Positions 1,898 through 11,272 of a DNA stretch of 64,000 bases are shown here, piece by piece. How positions within the stretch are numbered: the first letter of the stretch is position 1; each line of letters starts with the position of its first letter. The stretch lies in NCBI RefSeq assembly GCF_030013595.1, contig NZ_CP122768.1. One strand, given 5' to 3'. The notes beneath the pieces were generated by a model. It searched no databases and was not told the DNA's origin. It saw nothing but the letters and a program-made list of their open reading frames with translations. This stretch comes from Escherichia coli (lineage in GTDB: Bacteria > Pseudomonadota > Gammaproteobacteria > Enterobacterales > Enterobacteriaceae). A program made the position numbers and the translations under genes.

Positions 1898-4800
1898 ATG
1901 GGTAAAGGCAGCAGTAAGGGGCATACCCCGCGCGAAGCGAAGGACAACCTGAAATCCACGCAGCTGCTGAGTGTGATTGATGCCATCAGCGAAGGGCCGG
2001 TTGAAGGTCCGGTGGATGGATTAAAAAGCGTGCTGCTGAACAGTACGCCAGTGCTGGACAGTGAGGGGAATACCAACATCTCCGGCGTCACGGTGGTGTT
2101 CCGGGCCGGTGAGCAGGAGCAGACACCGCCGGAGGGATTTGAATCCTCCGGCTCCGAGACGGTGCTGGGTACGGAAGTGAAATACGACACGCCGATCACC
2201 CGGACCATCACGTCGGCAAACATTGACCGACTGCGTTTTACCTTCGGCGTGCAGGCACTGGTGGAAACCACCTCAAAGGGGGACAGGAATCCGTCGGAAG
2301 TCCGCCTGCTGGTTCAGATACAGCGTAACGGTGGCTGGGTGACGGAAAAAGACATCACCATTAAGGGCAAAACCACCTCGCAGTATCTGGCCTCGGTGGT
2401 GGTGGGTAACCTGCCGCCGCGCCCGTTCACTATACGGATGCGCAGGATGACGCCGGACAGCACCACAGACCAGCTGCAGAACAAAACGCTCTGGTCGTCA
2501 TACACCGAAATCATCGATGTGAAACAGTGCTACCCGAACACGGCACTGGTCGGCGTGCAGGTGGACTCGGAGCAGTTCGGCAGCCAGCAGGTGAGCCGTA
2601 ATTATCATCTGCGCGGGCGTATTCTGCAGGTGCCGTCGAACTATAACCCGCAGACGCGGCAATACAGCGGTATCTGGGACGGAACGTTTAAGCCAGCATA
2701 CAGCAACAACATGGCCTGGTGTCTGTGGGATATGCTGACCCATCCACGCTACGGCATGGGGAAACGTCTTGGTGCGGCGGATGTGGACAAATGGGCGCTG
2801 TATGTCATCGGCCAGTACTGCGACCAGTCGGTGCCGGACGGCTTTGGCGGCACGGAGCCGCGCATCGCCTGTAATGCGTACCTGACCACACAGCGCAAGG
2901 CCTGGGATGTGCTCAGTGATTTCTGCTCGGCGATGCGCTGTATGCCGGTATGGAACGGGCAGACGCTGACGTTCGTGCAGGACCGACCGTCGGATAAGGT
3001 GTGGACCTATAACCGCAGTAATGTGGTGATGCCGGATGATGGCGCACCATTCCGCTACAGCTTCAGCGCCCTGAAAGACCGCCATAATGCCGTTGAGGTG
3101 AACTGGATTGACCCGGATAACGGCCAGGAGACGGCGACAGAGCTTGTGGAGGACTCGCAGGCCATTGCCCGTTACGGTCGTAACGTCACGAAGATGGATG
3201 CGTTTGGCTGTACCAGCCGGGGGCAGGCGCACCGCGCCGGGCTGTGGCTGATTAAAACAGAACTGCTGGAAACGCAGACCGTGGACTTCAGCGTGGGTGC
3301 CGAAGGGCTTCGCCATGTACCGGGCGATGTCATTGAAATCTGCGATGATGACTATGCCGGTATCAGCACCGGCGGGCGCGTGCTGGCGGTGAACAGCCAG
3401 ACCCGGACGCTGACGCTCGACCGTGAAATCACGCTGCCATCCTCCGGCACCACGCTGATAAGCCTGGTTGACGGAAGTGGCAATCCGGTCAGCGTGGAGG
3501 TCCAGTCCGTCACCGACGGCGTGAAGGTGAAAGTGAGCCGGGTTCCTGACGGCGTTGCCGAGTACAGCGTGTGGGGGCTGAAGCTGCCGACGCTGCGCCA
3601 GCGCCTGTTCCGCTGTGTGAGTATCCGTGAGAACGACGACGGTACGTATGCCATCACTGCAGTGCAGCATGTACCGGAGAAAGAAGCCATCGTGGATAAC
3701 GGGGCGCACTTTGACGGTAACCAGAGCGGCACGGTGAATGGTGTCACGCCGCCAGCAGTGCAGCATCTGACCGCAGAAGTCACCGCAGACAGCGGGGAAT
3801 ATCGGGTGCTGGCCCGCTGGGACACGCCGAAGGTGGTGAAGGGCGTGAGCTTCCTGCTTCGCCTGACCGTGGCAGCGGATGACGGCAGTGAGCGGCTGGT
3901 CAGCACGGCCCGGACGACGGAAACCACTTACCGCTTCACACAACTGGCTCTGGGGAACTACAGGCTGACAGTCCGGGCAGTAAATGCGTGGGGGCAGCAG
4001 GGCGATCCGGCGTCGGTATCGTTCCGGATTGCCGCACCGGCAGCGCCGTCGCGGATTGAGCTGACGCCGGGCTATTTTCAGATAACCGCCACGCCGCATC
4101 TTGCGGTTTATGATCCGACGGTACAGTTTGAGTTCTGGTTCTCGGAAAAGCGGATTGCGGATATCAGGCAGGTTGAAACCACAGCACGCTATCTTGGCAC
4201 GGCGCTGTACTGGATAGCCGCCAGTATCAATATCAAACCGGGCCATAATTATTATTTTTACGTTCGCAGTGTGAACACCGTTGGCAAATCGGCATTCGTG
4301 GAGGCTGTTGGTCAGCCGAGTGATGACGCATCCGGCTATCTGGATTTTTTCAAAGGCGAGATAGGGAAAACCCATCTGGCTCAGGAGCTGTGGACGCAGA
4401 TTGATAACGGTCAGCTTGCGCCTGACCTGGCTGAAATCAGGACGTCCATTACGGATGTCAGCAATGAAATCACACAGACCGTCAATAAGAAACTGGAAGA
4501 CCAGAGTGCAGCAATTCAGCAGATACAGCAGGTTCAGGTTGATACAAGTAATAACCTGAACAGCATGTGGGCTGTGAAGTTGCAGCAGATGCAGGACGGA
4601 CGCCTTTATATTGCGGGTATCGGTGCCGGTATTGAGAACACCCCCGACGGCATGCAGAGTCAGGTGCTGCTGGCGGCAGACAGGATTGCGATGATTAATC
4701 CTGCAAATGGCAACACAAAACCGATGTTTGTTGGTCAGGGTGATCAGATATTCATGAATGAAGTGTTCCTGAAATATCTGACGGCTCCCACCATTACCAG

Positions 4801-5377
4801 CGGCGGTAATCCTCCTGCATTTTCCCTGACACCGGACGGAAAGCTGACCGCTAAAAATGCAGATATCAGTGGCAGTGTGAATGCGAACGCCGGGACGCTC
4901 AACAACGTTACGATAAATGAAAACTGTCAGATTAAAGGGAAACTGTCAGCCAACCAGATTGAAGGCGATATTGTCAAAACAGTGGGTAAGGCTTTCCCGC
5001 GGGACTCCCGGGCACCGGAGCGGTGGCCATCAGGGACCATTACCGTCAGGATTTATGACGATCAGCCGTTTGACCGGCAGATTGTTATTCCGGCGGTGGC
5101 ATTCAGCGGTGCTAAACATGAGAGAGAGCATACTGATATTTACTCCTCATGCCGCCTGATAGTGAAGAAAAATGGTGCTGAAATTTATAACCGTACCGCG
5201 CTGGATAATACGCTGATTTACAGTGGTGTTATTGATATGCCAGCTGGTCACGGCCACATGACGCTGGAGTTTTCGGTGTCAGCATGGCTGGTAAATGACT
5301 GGTATCCCACAGCAAGTATCAGCGATTTGCTGGTTGTGGTGATGAAGAAAGCCACCGCAGGCATCAGTATCAGCTGA
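1898..5377 (+). CDS. Phage tail tip / host specificity protein J
   Basis: 1159-aa ORF directly after I; size, position and fibronectin-III-like central region match lambda gpJ. Confidence 0.9.
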
Positions 5378-5395
5378 ATTTTATAACCCATATAC

Positions 5396-5420
5396 GGGCG
5401 CCAGAAATGGCGCCTTTTTT
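5396..5420 (+). terminator. Rho-independent terminator after J
   Basis: GGCGCC-AGAAAT-GGCGCC hairpin followed by TTTTTT. Confidence 0.6.
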
Positions 5421-5444
5421 ATTGCAGAAAAGCGAGAGGTAATT

Positions 5445-6044
5445 ATGCGTAAAGTTTGTGCAGCCATTTTGTCCACAGCCATCTGTCTGGCCGTATCCGG
5501 TGCGCCTGCATGGGCGTCTGAGCAGCAGGCCACACTGAGCGCAGGGTATCTTCATGCCCGTACGAACGCTCCCGGCAGCGATAATCTGAACGGGATTAAC
5601 GTGAAATACCGTTATGAGTTTACGGACACGCTGGGGCTGATTACGTCATTCAGTTATGCCAACGCTGAAGATGAGCAAAAAACGCATTACAGCGATACCC
5701 GCTGGCATGAAGATTCCGTGCGTAACCGCTGGTTCAGCGTAATGGCGGGGCCGTCTGTGCGCGTGAATGAATGGTTCAGCGTGTATGCGATGGCGGGTGT
5801 GGCTTACAGCCGTGTGTCGACTTTCTTCGGGGATTATCTCCGCGTAACTGACAACAAGGGGAAAACGCACGATGTGCTGACCGGAAGTGATGACGGTCGC
5901 CACAGCAACACGTCTCTGGCGTGGGGGGCTGGCGTGCAGTTTAACCCGACCGAATCCGTGGCCATTGATATTGCTTATGAAGGCTCCGGCAGTGGTGACT
6001 GGCGCACTGACGGTTTCATCGTGGGTGTCGGTTATAAATTCTGA
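5445..6044 (+). CDS. lom: Lom outer-membrane protein (Ail/Lom/OmpX beta-barrel family), prophage moron
   Basis: 199 aa with signal peptide and C-terminal ...GVGYKF beta-barrel ending; sits between J and stf as in lambda. Confidence 0.9.
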
Positions 6045-6070
6045 TTAGCCAGGTAACACAGTGTTATGAC

Positions 6071-6098
6071 AGCCCGTCGGTTCAGGCGGGCTTTTTTG
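6071..6098 (+). terminator. Rho-independent terminator after lom
   Basis: GC stem (gcccg/cgggc) followed by TTTTTT just before stf. Confidence 0.55.
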
Positions 6099-6108
6099 TG
6101 GGGTGAAT

Positions 6109-9100
6109 ATGGCAGTAAAGATTTCAGGTGTACTGAAAGACGGCACAGGAAAACCGGTACAGAACTGCACAATCCAGCTGAAAGCAAAACGTAACAGCAC
6201 CACGGTGGTGGTGAACACGCTGGCCTCAGAAAATCCGGATGAAGCCGGGCGTTACAGCATGGACGTTGAGTACGGTCAGTACAGCGTTATTCTGTTGGTG
6301 GAAGGATTCCCGCCGTCACATGCCGGGACCATCACCGTGTATGAAGACTCCCGACCCGGTACGCTGAATGATTTTCTCGGTGCCATGACGGAGGATGATG
6401 CCCGGCCAGAGGCACTGCGCCGTTTTGAGCTGATGGTGGAAGAGGTGGCGCGTAACGCGTCCGCGGTGGCACAGAACACGGCAGCCGCGAAGAAGTCAGC
6501 CGGCGATGCCGGCACATCAGCCCGTGAGGCGGCAACCCATGCGACTGATGCTGCAGGCTCAGCACGCGCAGCCAGCACGTCAGCCGGACAGGCCGCGTCG
6601 TCGGCTCAGTCAGCGTCTTCCAGCGCAGGAACGGCATCAACAAAGGCCAGTGAAGCATCGAAAAGTGCTGCTGCTGCAGAGTCCTCAAAAAGCGCGGCAG
6701 CTACCAGTGCCAGTGCCGCGAAAACGTCAGAAACGAATGCCGCAGCGTCACAACAATCAGCAGCCACTTCTGCATCCACCGCGACCACGAAAGCGTCAGA
6801 AGCTGCCACCTCAGCCCGGGATGCGGCGGCCTCAAAAGAGGCAGCGAAATCATCAGAAACGAACGCATCCTCGAGCGCCAGTAGCGCAACTTCCTCGGCA
6901 ACGGCGGCAGGAAATTCCGCGAAGGCGGCAAAAACGTCCGAGACGAACGCTAAGTCTTCTGAGACGGCAGCGGGACAGAGCGCCTCAGCTGCGGCAGGCT
7001 CAAAAACAGCGGCTGCATCATCTGCCAGCGCCGCGTCAACAAGTGCCGGGCAGGCCTCAGCCAGTGCCACCGCCGCCGGAAAATCGGCAGAAAGCGCCGC
7101 ATCATCCGCTTCAACAGCCACAACGAAGGCTGGCGAAGCCACTGAACAGGCCAGCGCAGCAGCGAGTTCTGCTTCCGCAGCGAAGACATCCGAAACGAAC
7201 GCGAAAGCGTCGGAAACCAGCGCAGAATCCTCAAAAACGGCTGCCGCATCGTCAGCCAGTTCGGCGGCGTCATCGGCATCATCGGCGTCTGCTTCAAAAG
7301 ATGAGGCGACCAGACAGGCGTCAGCAGCGAAGGGCAGCGCCACGACAGCATCCACGAAGGCGACAGAGGCAGCTGGTAGTGCGACAGCGGCAGCTCAGAG
7401 CAAAAGTACGTCGGAATCTGCAGCAACGCGTGCCGAGACAGCAGCAAAACGGGCAGAGGATATTGCATCTGCCGTGGCGCTTGAGGATGCGAGCACGACG
7501 AAAAAGGGGATAGTACAGCTCAGCAGTGCGACCAACAGTACGTCTGAAACGCTGGCGGCAACGCCAAAGGCAGTAAAATCAGCCTATGACAATGCAGAGA
7601 AACGTCTGCAGAAAGACCAGAACGGCGCTGATATACCCGATAAGGGACGCTTCCTGAACAACATTAACGCGGTCAGTAAAACAGACTTTGCTGATAAGCG
7701 TGGTATGCGTTATGTGCGGGTTAACGCTCCTGCAGGTGCAACATCTGGAAAATATTACCCTGTTGTTGTTATGCGTTCTGCTGGCTCAGTAAGCGAACTG
7801 GCATCAAGGGTCATTATCACCACGGCAACGCGAACCGCAGGCGATCCGATGAATAACTGCGAGTTTAACGGATTTGTTATGCCTGGTGGCTGGACTGACA
7901 GGGGGCGTTATGCTTATGGAATGTTCTGGCAATATCAAAACAATGAACGAGCCATCCACTCAATAATGATGAGTAATAAGGGCGATGATTTGCGCTCTGT
8001 GTTCTATGTTGATGGCGCTGCTTTCCCTGTTTTTGCGTTTATCGAAGATGGCCTGTCAATATCCGCACCTGGTGCTGATCTCGTTGTTAATGATACGACC
8101 TATAAGTTTGGGGCAACAAATCCAGCGACTGAATGTATCGCGGCGGACGTTATCCTTGATTTTAAGAGTGGGCGTGGTTTTTATGAGTCTCATTCGTTAA
8201 TCGTTAACGATAATTTGTCGTGCAAAAAACTTTTTGCCACAGACGAAATTGTAGCGCGTGGTGGTAATCAGATTCGAATGATAGGTGGGGAGTATGGTGC
8301 ATTATGGCGTAATGATGGCGCTAAAACTTACCTGCTGCTTACCAATCAAGGTGATGTTTATGGTGGCTGGAATACATTAAGACCGTTTGCTATTGATAAC
8401 GCAACCGGCGAACTGGTTATTGGAACCAAACTGTCCGCAAGTCTGAACGGTAATGCATTAACAGCAACAAAGCTGCAAACGCCAAGACGGGTTTCTGGTG
8501 TTGAGTTTGATGGTTCCAGAGATATTACTTTAACCGCCGCGCATGTGGCTGCTTTTGCCAGAAGGGCAACGGATACATATGCCGATGCGGATGGTGGCGT
8601 TCCCTGGAATGCCGAATCAGGTGCTTACAATGTCACCCGCTCTGGCGACAGCTATATTCTGGTTAACTTCTATACCGGAGTCGGAAGTTGCCGGACCCTG
8701 CAGATGAAGGCGCATTACAGAAATGGTGGTCTGTTCTACCGTTCTTCAAGAGACGGTTATGGTTTTGAGGAAGACTGGGCAGAAGTTTATACCTCGAAAA
8801 ATCTTCCACCAGAAAGCTACCCAGTCGGCGCACCAATCCCGTGGCCATCAGATACCGTTCCGTCTGGTTATGCCCTGATGCAGGGGCAGACTTTTGACAA
8901 ATCTGCTTACCCGAAACTTGCAGCCGCTTATCCGTCAGGCGTGATCCCTGATATGCGTGGCTGGACGATTAAGGGCAAACCTGCCAGTGGTCGGGCCGTA
9001 TTGTCTCAGGAACAGGACGGCATTAAATCGCATACCCACAGCGCCAGCGCATCCAGTACGGATTTGGGGACGAAAACCACATCGTCGTTTGATTACGGCA

Positions 9101-9459
9101 CTAAATCCACGAATAACACCGGGGCGCATACCCATAGTGTTAGCGGTACGGCTGCTTCAGCCGGTGCACATACCCATTCGATGACATTTGTTTCAGGTGG
9201 TTCCAGTGGTGCTCCGGGAAGTGGAGCATCTGATTATTCTAAATACAGTGTTAACACTTCTTCTGCAGGCGCTCATACGCACTCTGTATCGGGTACTGCT
9301 GCAAGCGCAGGTGCACACGCACATACTGTGGGTATTGGTGCTCATACGCACTCCGTTGCGATTGGTTCACATGGACACACCATCACCGTTAACGCTGCTG
9401 GTAACGCGGAAAACACCGTCAAAAACATCGCATTTAACTATATTGTGAGGCTTGCATAA
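6109..9459 (+). CDS. stf: Side tail fibre protein Stf (long form)
   Basis: ORF track starts at a GTG (6103); likely ATG at 6109 giving [17 protein letters not shown]... Contains a long Ala/Ser/Thr-rich repeat region and a C-terminal His-rich GAHTHS repeat block. Confidence 0.9.
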
Positions 9460-10034
9460 TGGCATTCAGAATGAGTGAACAACCACGGACCATAAAAATT
9501 TATAATCTGCTGGCCGGAACTAATGAATTTATTGGTGAAGGTGATGCATATATTCCGCCTCATACAGGTCTGCCAGCAAACAGTACCGATATTGCACCGC
9601 CAGATATTCCGGCTGGCTTCGTGGCTGTTTTCAACAGTGATGAGTCATCGTGGCATCTCGTTGAAGATCATCGGGGTAAAATGGTTTATGACGTGGCTTC
9701 CGGCGACGCGTTATTTATTTCTGAACTCGGTCCGTTACCGGAAAATGTTACCTGGTTATCGCCGGAAGGGGAGTTTCAGAAGTGGAACGGTACAGTCTGG
9801 GTGAAGGATACGGAAGCAGAAAAACTGTTCCGGATCCGGGAGGCGGAAGAAACAAAAAACAGCCTGATGCAGGTAGCCAGTGAGCATATAGCGCCACTTC
9901 AGGATGCTGTAGATCTGGAAATCGCAACGGAGGAAGAAACCTCATTGCTGGAAGCCTGGAAAAAGTATCGGGTGTTGCTGAACCGTGTTGATACATCAAC
10001 TGCACAGGATATTGAATGGCCAGCACTGCCGTAG
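9459..10034 (+). CDS. tfa: Tail fibre assembly protein Tfa
   Basis: 191 aa, start overlaps stf stop (TAATG); Tfa-family chaperone immediately after stf. Confidence 0.9.
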
Positions 10035-10131
10035 GGTAAAACATATAAATTCTATAATTAGATGTATCTTTCCATTTACGGCAAGGAAGGGGGCTTGGAA
10101 GACGTAAAGCATCTCACACCGAGATTATTTT

Positions 10132-10722
10132 TTATATGTCAGGTGTCTGAAGTTTTGCTTTGGCTCTTAAAATGGTTTGCCGCGAGGTTTTGAATTCCCG
10201 GGCAATGGCACTTATACTTACACCTGACTTAATTCGTTCGAATACCACCTGTTTCTGTTCTTCATTTAACACAGGTGGTCGACCAAAACGTTTCCCTGCG
10301 CCGCGGGCTCTTACTATCCCGGAATGAGTGCGTTCAAGTAAAAGGTCTCGTTCAAATTCAGCGACTGCTGAAATTACGTGCATCATCATTTTTCCTGTTG
10401 GACTGGTCAGGTCAATGCCCCCCAATGCTAAGCAATGCACTCTGATACCTGTTTCGGTCAGTTGTTCCACTGTTTTCCTGATATCCATTGCATTACAACC
10501 AAGGCGATCCAGTTTTGTCACAATCAATTGATCACCACATTTCAGGCGAGCAAGCAACCGGTTAAAACCAGGACGCTCACTGGTTGCTGCTGAGCCGCTA
10601 ATGTGTTCTTCGATTATTTGCTGAGGTTTGATTTTAAAACCTGCACTTTCGATTTCCCGGCGTTGATTTTCGGTGGTCTGATCCAGCGTTGATATCCGAC
10701 AGTAAGCAAAAATTCGAGACAT
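10132..10722 (-). CDS. pin: Pin-type serine DNA invertase (Hin/Gin/Cin family)
   Basis: 196 aa [15 protein letters not shown]... with resolvase catalytic Ser region and C-terminal HTH; convergent with tfa, as pinQ/pinR in K-12 prophages. Confidence 0.9.
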
Positions 10723-11038
10723 AGTGAGACTCTATACGAAATTGGTGTTCATATCATAATGCATCTCAGAAAATAATTTTGATTATTTTTGTGCATATTT
10801 GTATGTACACGTTCGAAAATAAACGAATGCGTATGCAACCCCGTAATTTTGGTGAGACCCAAAATCGATTTTGTGAAAAATGGCTTTAACTCGGTTTGTT
10901 TTTCGAGTTCCGGGCAGACTCAAGGAAGAAGAATAGTGTTGCGTGTTATTTTAACCAGATTTCAATTTGTTTGGTCGTGGAAAAGTGGAGCAAAATGTTG
11001 TTAAAGTGGAAAAATGATAAAAAAGTAAGTTTGTTATA

Positions 11039-11272
11039 TTACATTTTACCATTTAAATTTTGGTTGTCTTTAAGAACTGATATCGCTGTTTGTAATAATT
11101 CTTTGTTATCCAGCCATGATTTTTTCTTTATGTTTCCTTCAATGTAATCAAGCAATGTTCTGGTATTGATAGGTCTTCCCTGTTTTGCTACTTCCACTAC
11201 AGCATCCCCTAGGATAATTCTTACTTCAGGAAGCTGCGCAGGGAACCACTTTAGGGTGTCTTTTGATTTCAT
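11039..11272 (-). CDS. ydfK: Prophage cold-shock-induced protein YdfK/YnaE family
   Basis: ORF track gives 88 aa; product recalled as 77 aa starting MKSKDTLKWFPAQLPEVRIILGD, so the start is placed at 11272. Confidence 0.7.
   Translation of the reverse strand: MKSKDTLKWFPAQLPEVRIILGDAVVEVAKQGRPINTRTLLDYIEGNIKKKSWLDNKELLQTAISVLKDNQNLNGKM

Follow-up and report, generated by a model that had tools for sequence, protein, structure and literature searches.

The stf gene of the window, by which we mean the whole stretch of 64,000 nucleotides analysed, encodes a side tail fibre that ends in a dense series of His-x-His (HxH) units. The locus raises the question of what these histidines do and which part of the fibre meets the host cell. 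Nucleotides 8815-9456 very probably encode the receptor-binding tip module of a lambda-type Stf, built of a collar, a metal-bound needle and a head, folded by Tfa and homologous to the tip of T4 gp37.

RefSeq starts the gene at ATG 6109, which is 6 nt downstream of the GTG at 6103, and labels it stfR or prophage tail fiber N-terminal domain-containing protein. Residues are numbered here from GTG 6103; RefSeq numbers are ours minus 2. Translation of 6103-9456 (+) gives 1118 aa, in which Pfam places the tail-attaching prophage tail fibre N-terminal domain (phage_tail_N, PF08400) at residues 3-136 (E = 9.2e-72), a Gp34_trimer domain at 665-764 and a Phage_fiber domain at 1004-1017. The gp37-type tip module comprises residues 905-1118 (nt 8815-9456), with the Collar domain at its start and a C-terminal strand, near-identical to its T4 and lambda counterparts, at its end. 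Small ORFs that overlie the tip in another reading frame or antisense to it (8957-9184, 9188-9448 and 8935-9135) are without support.

6103..9459, plus strand: stf, side tail fibre gene, a 1118-aa ORF from GTG 6103 (ORF list).
8827..8970, plus strand: Collar domain, Stf residues 909-956; PF07484 at 45.5 bits, cut-off 24; aligned with the collar of gp37 (2XGF).
9379..9456, plus strand: C-terminal return strand, which goes back into the collar; at least 90% conserved among 96 unique homologues.

Seven HxH units lie in the last 142 residues of Stf, at positions 977, 1009, 1023, 1058, 1072, 1081 and 1090 (nt 9031-9378). The sequence-only reading had counted at least six, which recognized the motif and slightly understated its number; the span it gave, 8990-9400, contains all seven, and the peptides it quoted are correct.

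9031..9039, plus strand: HxH 1, H977/H979, SHTHS; aligned to T4 gp37 H883/H885.
9127..9135, plus strand: HxH 2, H1009/H1011, GAHTHS; aligned to gp37 H915/H917.
9169..9177, plus strand: HxH 3, H1023/H1025, GAHTHS; aligned to gp37 H929/H931.
9274..9282, plus strand: HxH 4, H1058/H1060, GAHTHS; aligned to gp37 H966/H968.
9316..9324, plus strand: HxH 5, H1072/H1074, GAHAHT; aligned to gp37 H980/H982.
9343..9351, plus strand: HxH 6, H1081/H1083, GAHTHS; aligned to gp37 H989/H991.
9370..9378, plus strand: HxH 7, H1090/H1092, SHGHT; aligned to gp37 H998/H1000.

The exact form GAHTHS is found in four of the seven units, the remaining three being SHTHS, GAHAHT and SHGHT. The last 218 residues contain 14 histidines, every one of them in an HxH pair, against 6 histidines in the preceding 900. 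When these 218 residues were shuffled 100,000 times with their composition preserved, the maximum was 6 HxH and no shuffle reached 7. Low complexity or chance enrichment in histidine is ruled out by this test together with the homology described below. The DNA of the repeats is degenerate, the 20-nt units sharing 70-90% identity among the copies within the window. This argues for a conserved protein motif and led us to reject a recent tandem duplication of DNA as their origin.

Comparison with the PDB provides the structural framework. In a phmmer search the tip matched 2XGF, the T4 gp37 tip, with E = 8.8e-90 across all 215 residues of the module (query 4-218, chain 27-242). That crystal structure was reportedly described by Bartual et al. 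in 2010. By BLASTP, Stf residues 905-1118 and gp37 residues 812-1026 are 69% identical. All seven HxH units align, and their spacing (32/14/35/14/9/9 in Stf, 32/14/37/14/9/9 in T4) is the same except at the head. The likeness to the T4 tip proposed from the letters alone is thus true homology. The HxH motifs of the T4 needle coordinate seven irons, and H929 and H931 are essential, as the variants H929A and H931A abolish function (PMC6957217). In several fibres and spikes of phages, HxH provides octahedral coordination for Fe(II), the iron being buried and held by six histidines (PMC6116203).

The module is widespread, with 1974 homologues at E <= 1e-5. The earlier reading would have fallen had other functional Stf proteins lacked the repeats; they are present in lambda and T4, and 96 of 106 complete modules surveyed have exactly seven HxH. 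Most His columns are invariant in an alignment of 34 sequences, and among 96 unique homologues the module beyond the head is at least 90% conserved. Stf shares with T4 gp37 the order of collar, needle and head, an identical C-terminal ending and a dedicated chaperone gene directly 3'. It differs in that the remainder of the protein is lambda-type rather than a T4 distal half-fibre, in that its chaperone is a lambda-type Tfa, and in that the locus gives no sign of needing a gp57A-like helper. The T4/lambda receptor-binding protein family, catalogued by Magaziner & Salmond in 2022 with PhiNP ORF6 and over 200 phages, has more than 200 members, and its variable region determines specificity (PMC9659904). 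It likewise has a terminal module, ~215 aa long and conserved, that diverges only in the specificity region. We see no difference of substance between that family and the present Stf, which is another member on a long lambdoid shaft. More distant parallels are the R-type pyocin fibres, the P2 gpV and phi92 spikes and T4 gp12, in which a single octahedral metal site on the trimer axis is assembled from three HxH motifs (PMC6116203). Those proteins have one such site, whereas Stf would have seven in a row, and the needle has no detectable sequence homology to them. The gp12-type short fibre also has a collar domain, matched in the collar region only (9cuy, E = 5.7e-9).

Between HxH 3 and HxH 4 lies the sole hypervariable part of the module, a head of 32 residues that is free of histidine.

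9178..9273, plus strand: hypervariable head (residues 1026-1057), presumed to be the loop region that binds the receptor; from the conservation profile, the mosaic pattern and correspondence to the T4 head.

Across residues ~1027-1052 the 96 unique homologues show at most 30% identity to the query. Compared with phage ev099, the head is a DNA mosaic cassette (nt ~9139-9267) between flanks that are ~95% identical, and it behaves as an exchangeable unit. In T4, head residues 933-953 of gp37 bind LPS and OmpC (PMC6957217); the T4 head has 34 residues, and only 10 of the 32 in Stf are identical to it. The proposal that the His block marks the receptor-binding tip is right about the tip, but the HxH units would be its structural needle and the His-free head the part that contacts the receptor.

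The gene that follows stf was identified as the chaperone expected for such a tip.

9459..10034, plus strand: tfa, tail fibre assembly chaperone, 191 aa; Caudo_TAP, PF02413, E = 1.1e-43.

Its product shows 95% identity to lambda Tfa and 30% to T4 gp38 (E = 2e-18), both known chaperones for tips of this type, which bears out the earlier assignment. The tfa ATG overlaps the stf stop codon (TAATG). The same overlap exists in Ur-lambda, as does the gene order J, lom, stf, tfa (from the ORFs, Pfam, the RefSeq annotation of an identical locus and the lambda layout). Ur-lambda Stf, which is structurally homologous to gp37 and binds OmpC (PMC12617516), is 75% identical to the present protein over 260 residues of the N-terminal region and 68% in the C-terminal tip. 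Its tip differs by having 8 HxH, an additional SFDYGTK unit and a longer head, so that the module has 246 residues against 214. The middle of our Stf, roughly residues 490-900 including the Gp34_trimer domain, is unmatched in lambda Stf.

Structure prediction, the check that the earlier reading proposed, gave models too poor to use. AlphaFold2 modelled the tip monomer (residues 901-1118, 34-sequence alignment) at low confidence (pLDDT 49.8), and the sole feature to emerge was a long beta-hairpin formed by query residues 109-131 and 146-168. A trimer written as one chain, with (GGGGS)5 linkers between its three copies and an alignment concatenated to match, reached a pLDDT of 35.3, again low. 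A Foldseek search of the PDB with the low-confidence monomer returned nothing at E <= 0.001, and its top matches, pore-toxin beta-hairpins, are meaningless here. The poor models are probably due to an interdigitated, metal-dependent trimer fold, and we infer the trimeric, His-lined needle of Stf from homology rather than from de novo prediction.

On the T4 precedent, the assembled tip can be pictured as follows. Three Stf chains would ascend the needle, build the head and descend again. At each of seven needle levels the three chains would offer two imidazoles apiece, and the six histidines would hold one buried metal ion in octahedral geometry. By analogy with T4 this would be Fe(II), with seven ions per trimer. 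The metals would hold the three chains in register and make them stiffer, leaving the His-free head of 32 residues to touch the bacterial receptor. Tfa, whose gene is translationally coupled to stf, would serve as the dedicated chaperone that trimerises and folds the Stf tip.

The Qin prophage of K-12, at the ydfJ site, is defective. Here stf belongs to a lambdoid prophage of the Qin type, located at ydfJ with pinQ, ydfK and ynfT as neighbours. In the RefSeq annotation of an identical locus, which also gives these neighbours, none of the tail genes that lie upstream of stf (L, K, I, J and lom) is flagged as a pseudogene. The prophage carrying stf may itself be cryptic. A serine invertase gene adjoins the fibre genes.

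10132-10722, minus strand: pinQ-like serine invertase, Resolvase and HTH_7 (ORF list, Pfam, RefSeq).

We considered an invertible alternative tip of the Mu Gin, P1 Cin or e14 Pin type. Inverted repeats of relevance were absent from 5400-12100, the ORF list shows neither another tip nor another tfa in reverse orientation, and near stf or tfa we found no core of the AAACCnnGGTTT type, the crossover-site core motif of invertible tail-fibre systems. An invertible tip was rejected on the missing inverted repeats and crossover-site cores.

Several other accounts of the His block must be weighed against a metal-stapled receptor-binding tip. The same fold could hold Zn(II) or another divalent ion, and the HxH site of T4 gp12 does hold zinc in its crystal structure. 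That zinc may be an artefact, however, introduced when the protein was refolded in a zinc salt, and the usual HxH ligand, as in gp37, P2 gpV, phi92 and R-pyocin fibres, is iron (both points from PMC6116203). Since gp37, the closest homologue of the tip, holds its seven irons (PMC6957217), we consider another metal quite unlikely. The repeats might instead be kept mainly as DNA recombination motifs ('His boxes') for swapping heads, with a secondary role in metal binding. The mosaic boundaries against ev099 do coincide with the repeats on either side of the head, which is itself enclosed by a 22-aa direct repeat, and a database protein with only 5 HxH (P0095) resembles a deletion between the two repeats. 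In T-even phages, too, exchanges occur at conserved adhesin motifs (Tetart 1996, 1998, as cited in PMC3157838). Yet copies as divergent as those in the window make a poor substrate for homologous recombination, and the long flanks shared with ev099 would be enough for exchange between phages. The His codons, moreover, are kept at the protein level despite synonymous changes, even against T4, where the DNA is only ~70% identical, and the T4 alanine variants at H929 and H931 lose function. The recombination-motif and metal-binding roles are not mutually exclusive, but that recombination should be the main reason for the repeats strikes us as very unlikely.

It could also be argued that stf is the inert relic of a cryptic prophage, its conservation reflecting recent common descent only. 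The insertion site, shared with the defective Qin of K-12, and an invertase without an invertible segment would fit such decay. But neither the 1118-aa stf ORF nor tfa is broken, the two are translationally coupled, no pseudogene flag falls on L, K, I, J or lom, and not one of the 14 histidines has been lost. A hypervariable head amid conserved flanks in hundreds of genomes argues for ongoing selection for function in the family, and we regard a mere relic as unlikely. Least plausible, and to us scarcely credible, is the 'Ferrojan horse' hypothesis, cited for HxH-bearing fibres in PMC11705849, by which the fibre iron would act as a ligand that mimics siderophore-bound iron and engages an iron-uptake receptor. 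Iron in homologous HxH sites is buried and has its coordination filled by six histidines, the T4 contacts with LPS and OmpC are made by head residues (PMC6116203 and PMC6957217), and OmpC is used by lambda Stf (PMC12617516) and by AV118 (PMC10844046). The reading retained is that of a gp37-type tip in which the metals have a structural function and the head recognizes the receptor.

As such, the His block is already known biology, an ordinary gp37/Stf-type metal-stapled needle with nothing new. Tip structure, metal sites, chaperone dependence and modular exchange were described from 1989 to 2010, and the family was catalogued in 2022. The block marks the functional end of the side tail fibre as an intact needle of this type and locates the head on which the phage's choice of cells for adsorption should depend. 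It adds to the annotation, as the RefSeq name covers only the N-terminal domain, and it is of use for predicting host range and for choosing fusion points in engineered lambda- or T4-based particles.

The distribution of this head gives some indication of its target. The variant is present in 622 of 5426 complete E. coli genomes (~11%). Among 50,697 phage records the same head type was found in isolates only in the Mosigvirus phages AV116 and AV118, whose gp37 heads are identical to that of Stf at 25 of 32 residues, with ~85% nucleotide identity over the cassette; an identical head was found in none of the sequenced phage isolates. The nearest whole-module match in a phage, 2H10 (90%), has a different head. 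Unlike Stf, gp37 of AV116/AV118 has 8 HxH and a duplicated SFDYGTK unit, and it is carried between T-even-type flanks by a lytic myovirus. Experiments have shown that AV118 depends on OmpC (PMC10844046). The porin OmpC would most likely be the receptor of the Stf head as well, an assignment that is weak because of the limited identity of the head to those of T4 and AV118. Tentatively, and with the odds somewhat against it, this variant may be a specificity cassette recently exchanged between lambdoid prophages and virulent T-even phages, perhaps targeting a particular OmpC allele. If so, resident prophages would be a reservoir of host-range modules for lytic phages.

Comparison of the Stf side tail fibre (1118 residues, counted from GTG 6103) with the T4 long tail fibre provides the frame for reading its histidine-rich end. 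Over its last 215 residues Stf matches the crystallised T4 gp37 receptor-binding tip (PDB code 2XGF, E = 8.8e-90), and BLASTP puts Stf 905-1118 at 69% identity to gp37 812-1026; the likeness to gp37-type tips noted in the sequence-only reading is true homology. That reading had counted at least six His-x-His (HxH) units, and there are seven, at residues 977, 1009, 1023, 1058, 1072, 1081 and 1090 (nt 9031-9378). Four are exactly GAHTHS and the remaining three are SHTHS, GAHAHT and SHGHT. All 14 histidines of the last 218 residues fall in these pairs, and the first 900 residues hold only six histidines. When the last 218 residues were shuffled 100,000 times, no shuffle had seven units (highest, six). 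As DNA, the copies of this unit share only 70-90% identity over 20 nt, which rules out a fresh duplication as the origin of the repeats and argues for a selected protein motif. The seven units align with gp37 H883/885, 915/917, 929/931, 966/968, 980/982, 989/991 and 998/1000, and as their spacing is 32/14/35/14/9/9 in Stf vs 32/14/37/14/9/9 in T4, the needle register is unchanged, the difference in length being confined to the head, a 32-residue His-free stretch between units 3 and 4. The lambda Stf tip is 68% identical, with indels, and differs in having eight units and a longer head of its own.

A search of 5.8 billion proteins, with 8000 candidates scored, returned 1974 homologues of the tip (E <= 1e-5). 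Among the best 120 hits exactly seven units occur in 96 of the 106 complete modules (range 5 to 9), so the repeats recur in other functional Stf and gp37 proteins, T4 (seven) and lambda (eight) included. In the same hits nearly all positions are 90% or more identical to the query, the exception being residues ~1027-1052 (at most 30%); when T4, lambda and other homologues are aligned (34 sequences in all), the majority of His columns are invariant. Compared as DNA, the window and phage ev099 are near-identical across the collar and both needle arms and diverge abruptly at ~nt 9139-9267, a stretch that reads as a cassette exchange with the His repeats as borders. The "T4- and lambda-based RBP family" is already known to show this pattern (PMC9659904), and a lambda-like phage is the suggested source of the T4 tip and g38 (PMC3157838). 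The His block is real but a textbook feature; the prophage gene that carries it is very common in E. coli. A 22-residue direct repeat flanks the head (window 9118-9183 and 9265-9330; Stf 1006-1027 and 1055-1076). One database homologue (P0095), a 165-residue module with five units, seems to have arisen by deletion from one repeat copy to the other, with loss of the whole head.

According to PMC6957217, the T4 tip is made up of collar domain, six-stranded needle and head. Along the needle sit seven iron atoms, and each is bound by HxH motifs from all three chains. H929 and H931 are essential; LPS and OmpC bind to tip residues 933-953. PMC6116203 describes buried octahedral Fe(II) sites from HxH triplets as recurrent in phage fibres and spikes, thought to tune stiffness and to serve as reference points for trimer folding. 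Ur-lambda Stf, a structural homologue of gp37, binds OmpC (PMC12617516). From the homology and this literature, together with that on Tfa and gp38, we infer the trimerisation, metal content and receptor of Stf: nt 9031-9378 would form a metal-stapled needle, nt 9178-9273 the head touching the receptor, and the tfa product would be the chaperone for the tip. The earlier assignment of the block to a receptor-binding tip thus stands by homology, with the HxH units moved to the needle and receptor contact to the head; in essence that interpretation was right.

Of 5426 complete E. coli genomes, 3904 have a match to the full 661-nt tip and 622 to the specific head cassette. In a set of 50,697 phage records, the only matches to the cassette are in the lytic Mosigvirus AV116 and AV118 (85% nucleotide identity), whose heads have 25/32 residues in common with that of Stf vs 10/32 for T4. 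Experiments on ECOR4 showed that AV118, with the nearest head, requires OmpC (PMC10844046), which makes OmpC our best guess for the receptor, though no more than that. For AV116, the authors use the phylogeny of full-length gp37 to predict dependence on LPS; as the two gp37 tips are 100% identical over the last 232 residues, these assignments appear inconsistent.

A metal other than iron is possible but unlikely; the zinc of gp12 may be a refolding artefact, according to PMC6116203. That the fibre iron itself engages the receptor as bait conflicts with the evidence, as the metal sites are buried and the known receptors are at odds with it. If the repeats served mainly as "His boxes" for recombination, the mosaic borders would fit, but this would leave unexplained both the protein-level conservation across synonymous divergence and the lethality of T4 His-to-Ala changes.

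For the needle reading, the 69% identity to the solved 2XGF is much stronger evidence than either AlphaFold2 model, and neither model speaks against it. The monomer of the tip, a single-chain, metal-free model (pLDDT 49.8), gave only a long beta-hairpin with the head as its turn, and Foldseek found no significant PDB match for this low-confidence model. A linker-joined trimer with matched alignment reached pLDDT 35.3, by a method that handles neither true multimers nor metals.

The gene neighbourhood of stf fits a lambda-type tail end.

Features of the stf locus (window coordinates; domains from Pfam, J and Lom from the ORF list and Pfam)
1898-5377, J, 5' of stf
5445-6044, Lom, 5' of stf
6103-9459 (+), stf, one ORF, 1118 residues
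Stf residues 3-136, prophage tail-fibre N-terminal domain (E = 9.2e-72)
Stf residues 665-764 (~8095-8394), Gp34_trimer, T4 gp34-type (proximal long fibre) trimerisation domain (E = 3.4e-27)
Stf residues 909-956, phage tail collar domain
Stf residues 1004-1017, 14-residue "phage tail fibre repeat"
9459-10034, tfa, Caudo_TAP protein of 191 residues, 3' of stf
10132-10722 (-), pinQ-type serine invertase (Resolvase and HTH_7), directly past tfa
12057-13340 (+), ydfJ lacking its N-terminus, MHS-family transporter, at the right-hand prophage/chromosome junction

With the RefSeq start at ATG 6109, Stf residue numbers are 2 lower in RefSeq than those given here. The proposal that the downstream Tfa serves the tip is supported by the Caudo_TAP assignment and by 95% identity to lambda Tfa and 30% to T4 gp38 (E = 2e-18); Tfa and gp38 help tips of the gp37 type to assemble as trimers (PMC6957217, PMC7291167). 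The stf stop overlaps the tfa ATG (TAATG, 9457-9461), which suggests translational coupling of fibre and chaperone. Lambda has exactly this overlap, whereas T4 g38 begins 27 nt past g37.

The locus is identical in E. coli strain 2018-18.25PC, where the annotation lists phage tail genes (among them those for minor tail protein L and the tail tip protein, J) and, after these, Lom, stfR, a tail fibre assembly protein, pinQ, ydfK, ynfT and a 5'-truncated ydfJ; by this annotation it is a Qin-type lambdoid prophage integrated in ydfJ. The insertion site is that of Qin in K-12. There is a small chance that the prophage is a relic, against which its genes are intact. In window 5400-12100 no inverted repeats flank the invertase or stf-tfa, no AAACCnnGGTTT crossover cores were found near them, and there is no alternative tip or tfa in opposite orientation, which rules out an invertible tip as a host-range switch and marks the enzyme as an orphan.

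The Stf shaft also departs from that of lambda. A long Ala/Ser/Thr-rich tract with recurring AAKTSETNA and SASAA units (window ~6490-7570, residues ~130-490) shares 75% identity with the coiled-coil region at the N-terminus of lambda Stf and runs beyond the aligned stretch, which may mean a longer proximal shaft. The Gp34_trimer region, a second T4-long-fibre-like module that lambda Stf lacks, lies within the shaft, and Stf 722-787 weakly matches T4 gp37 584-651 by BLASTP.
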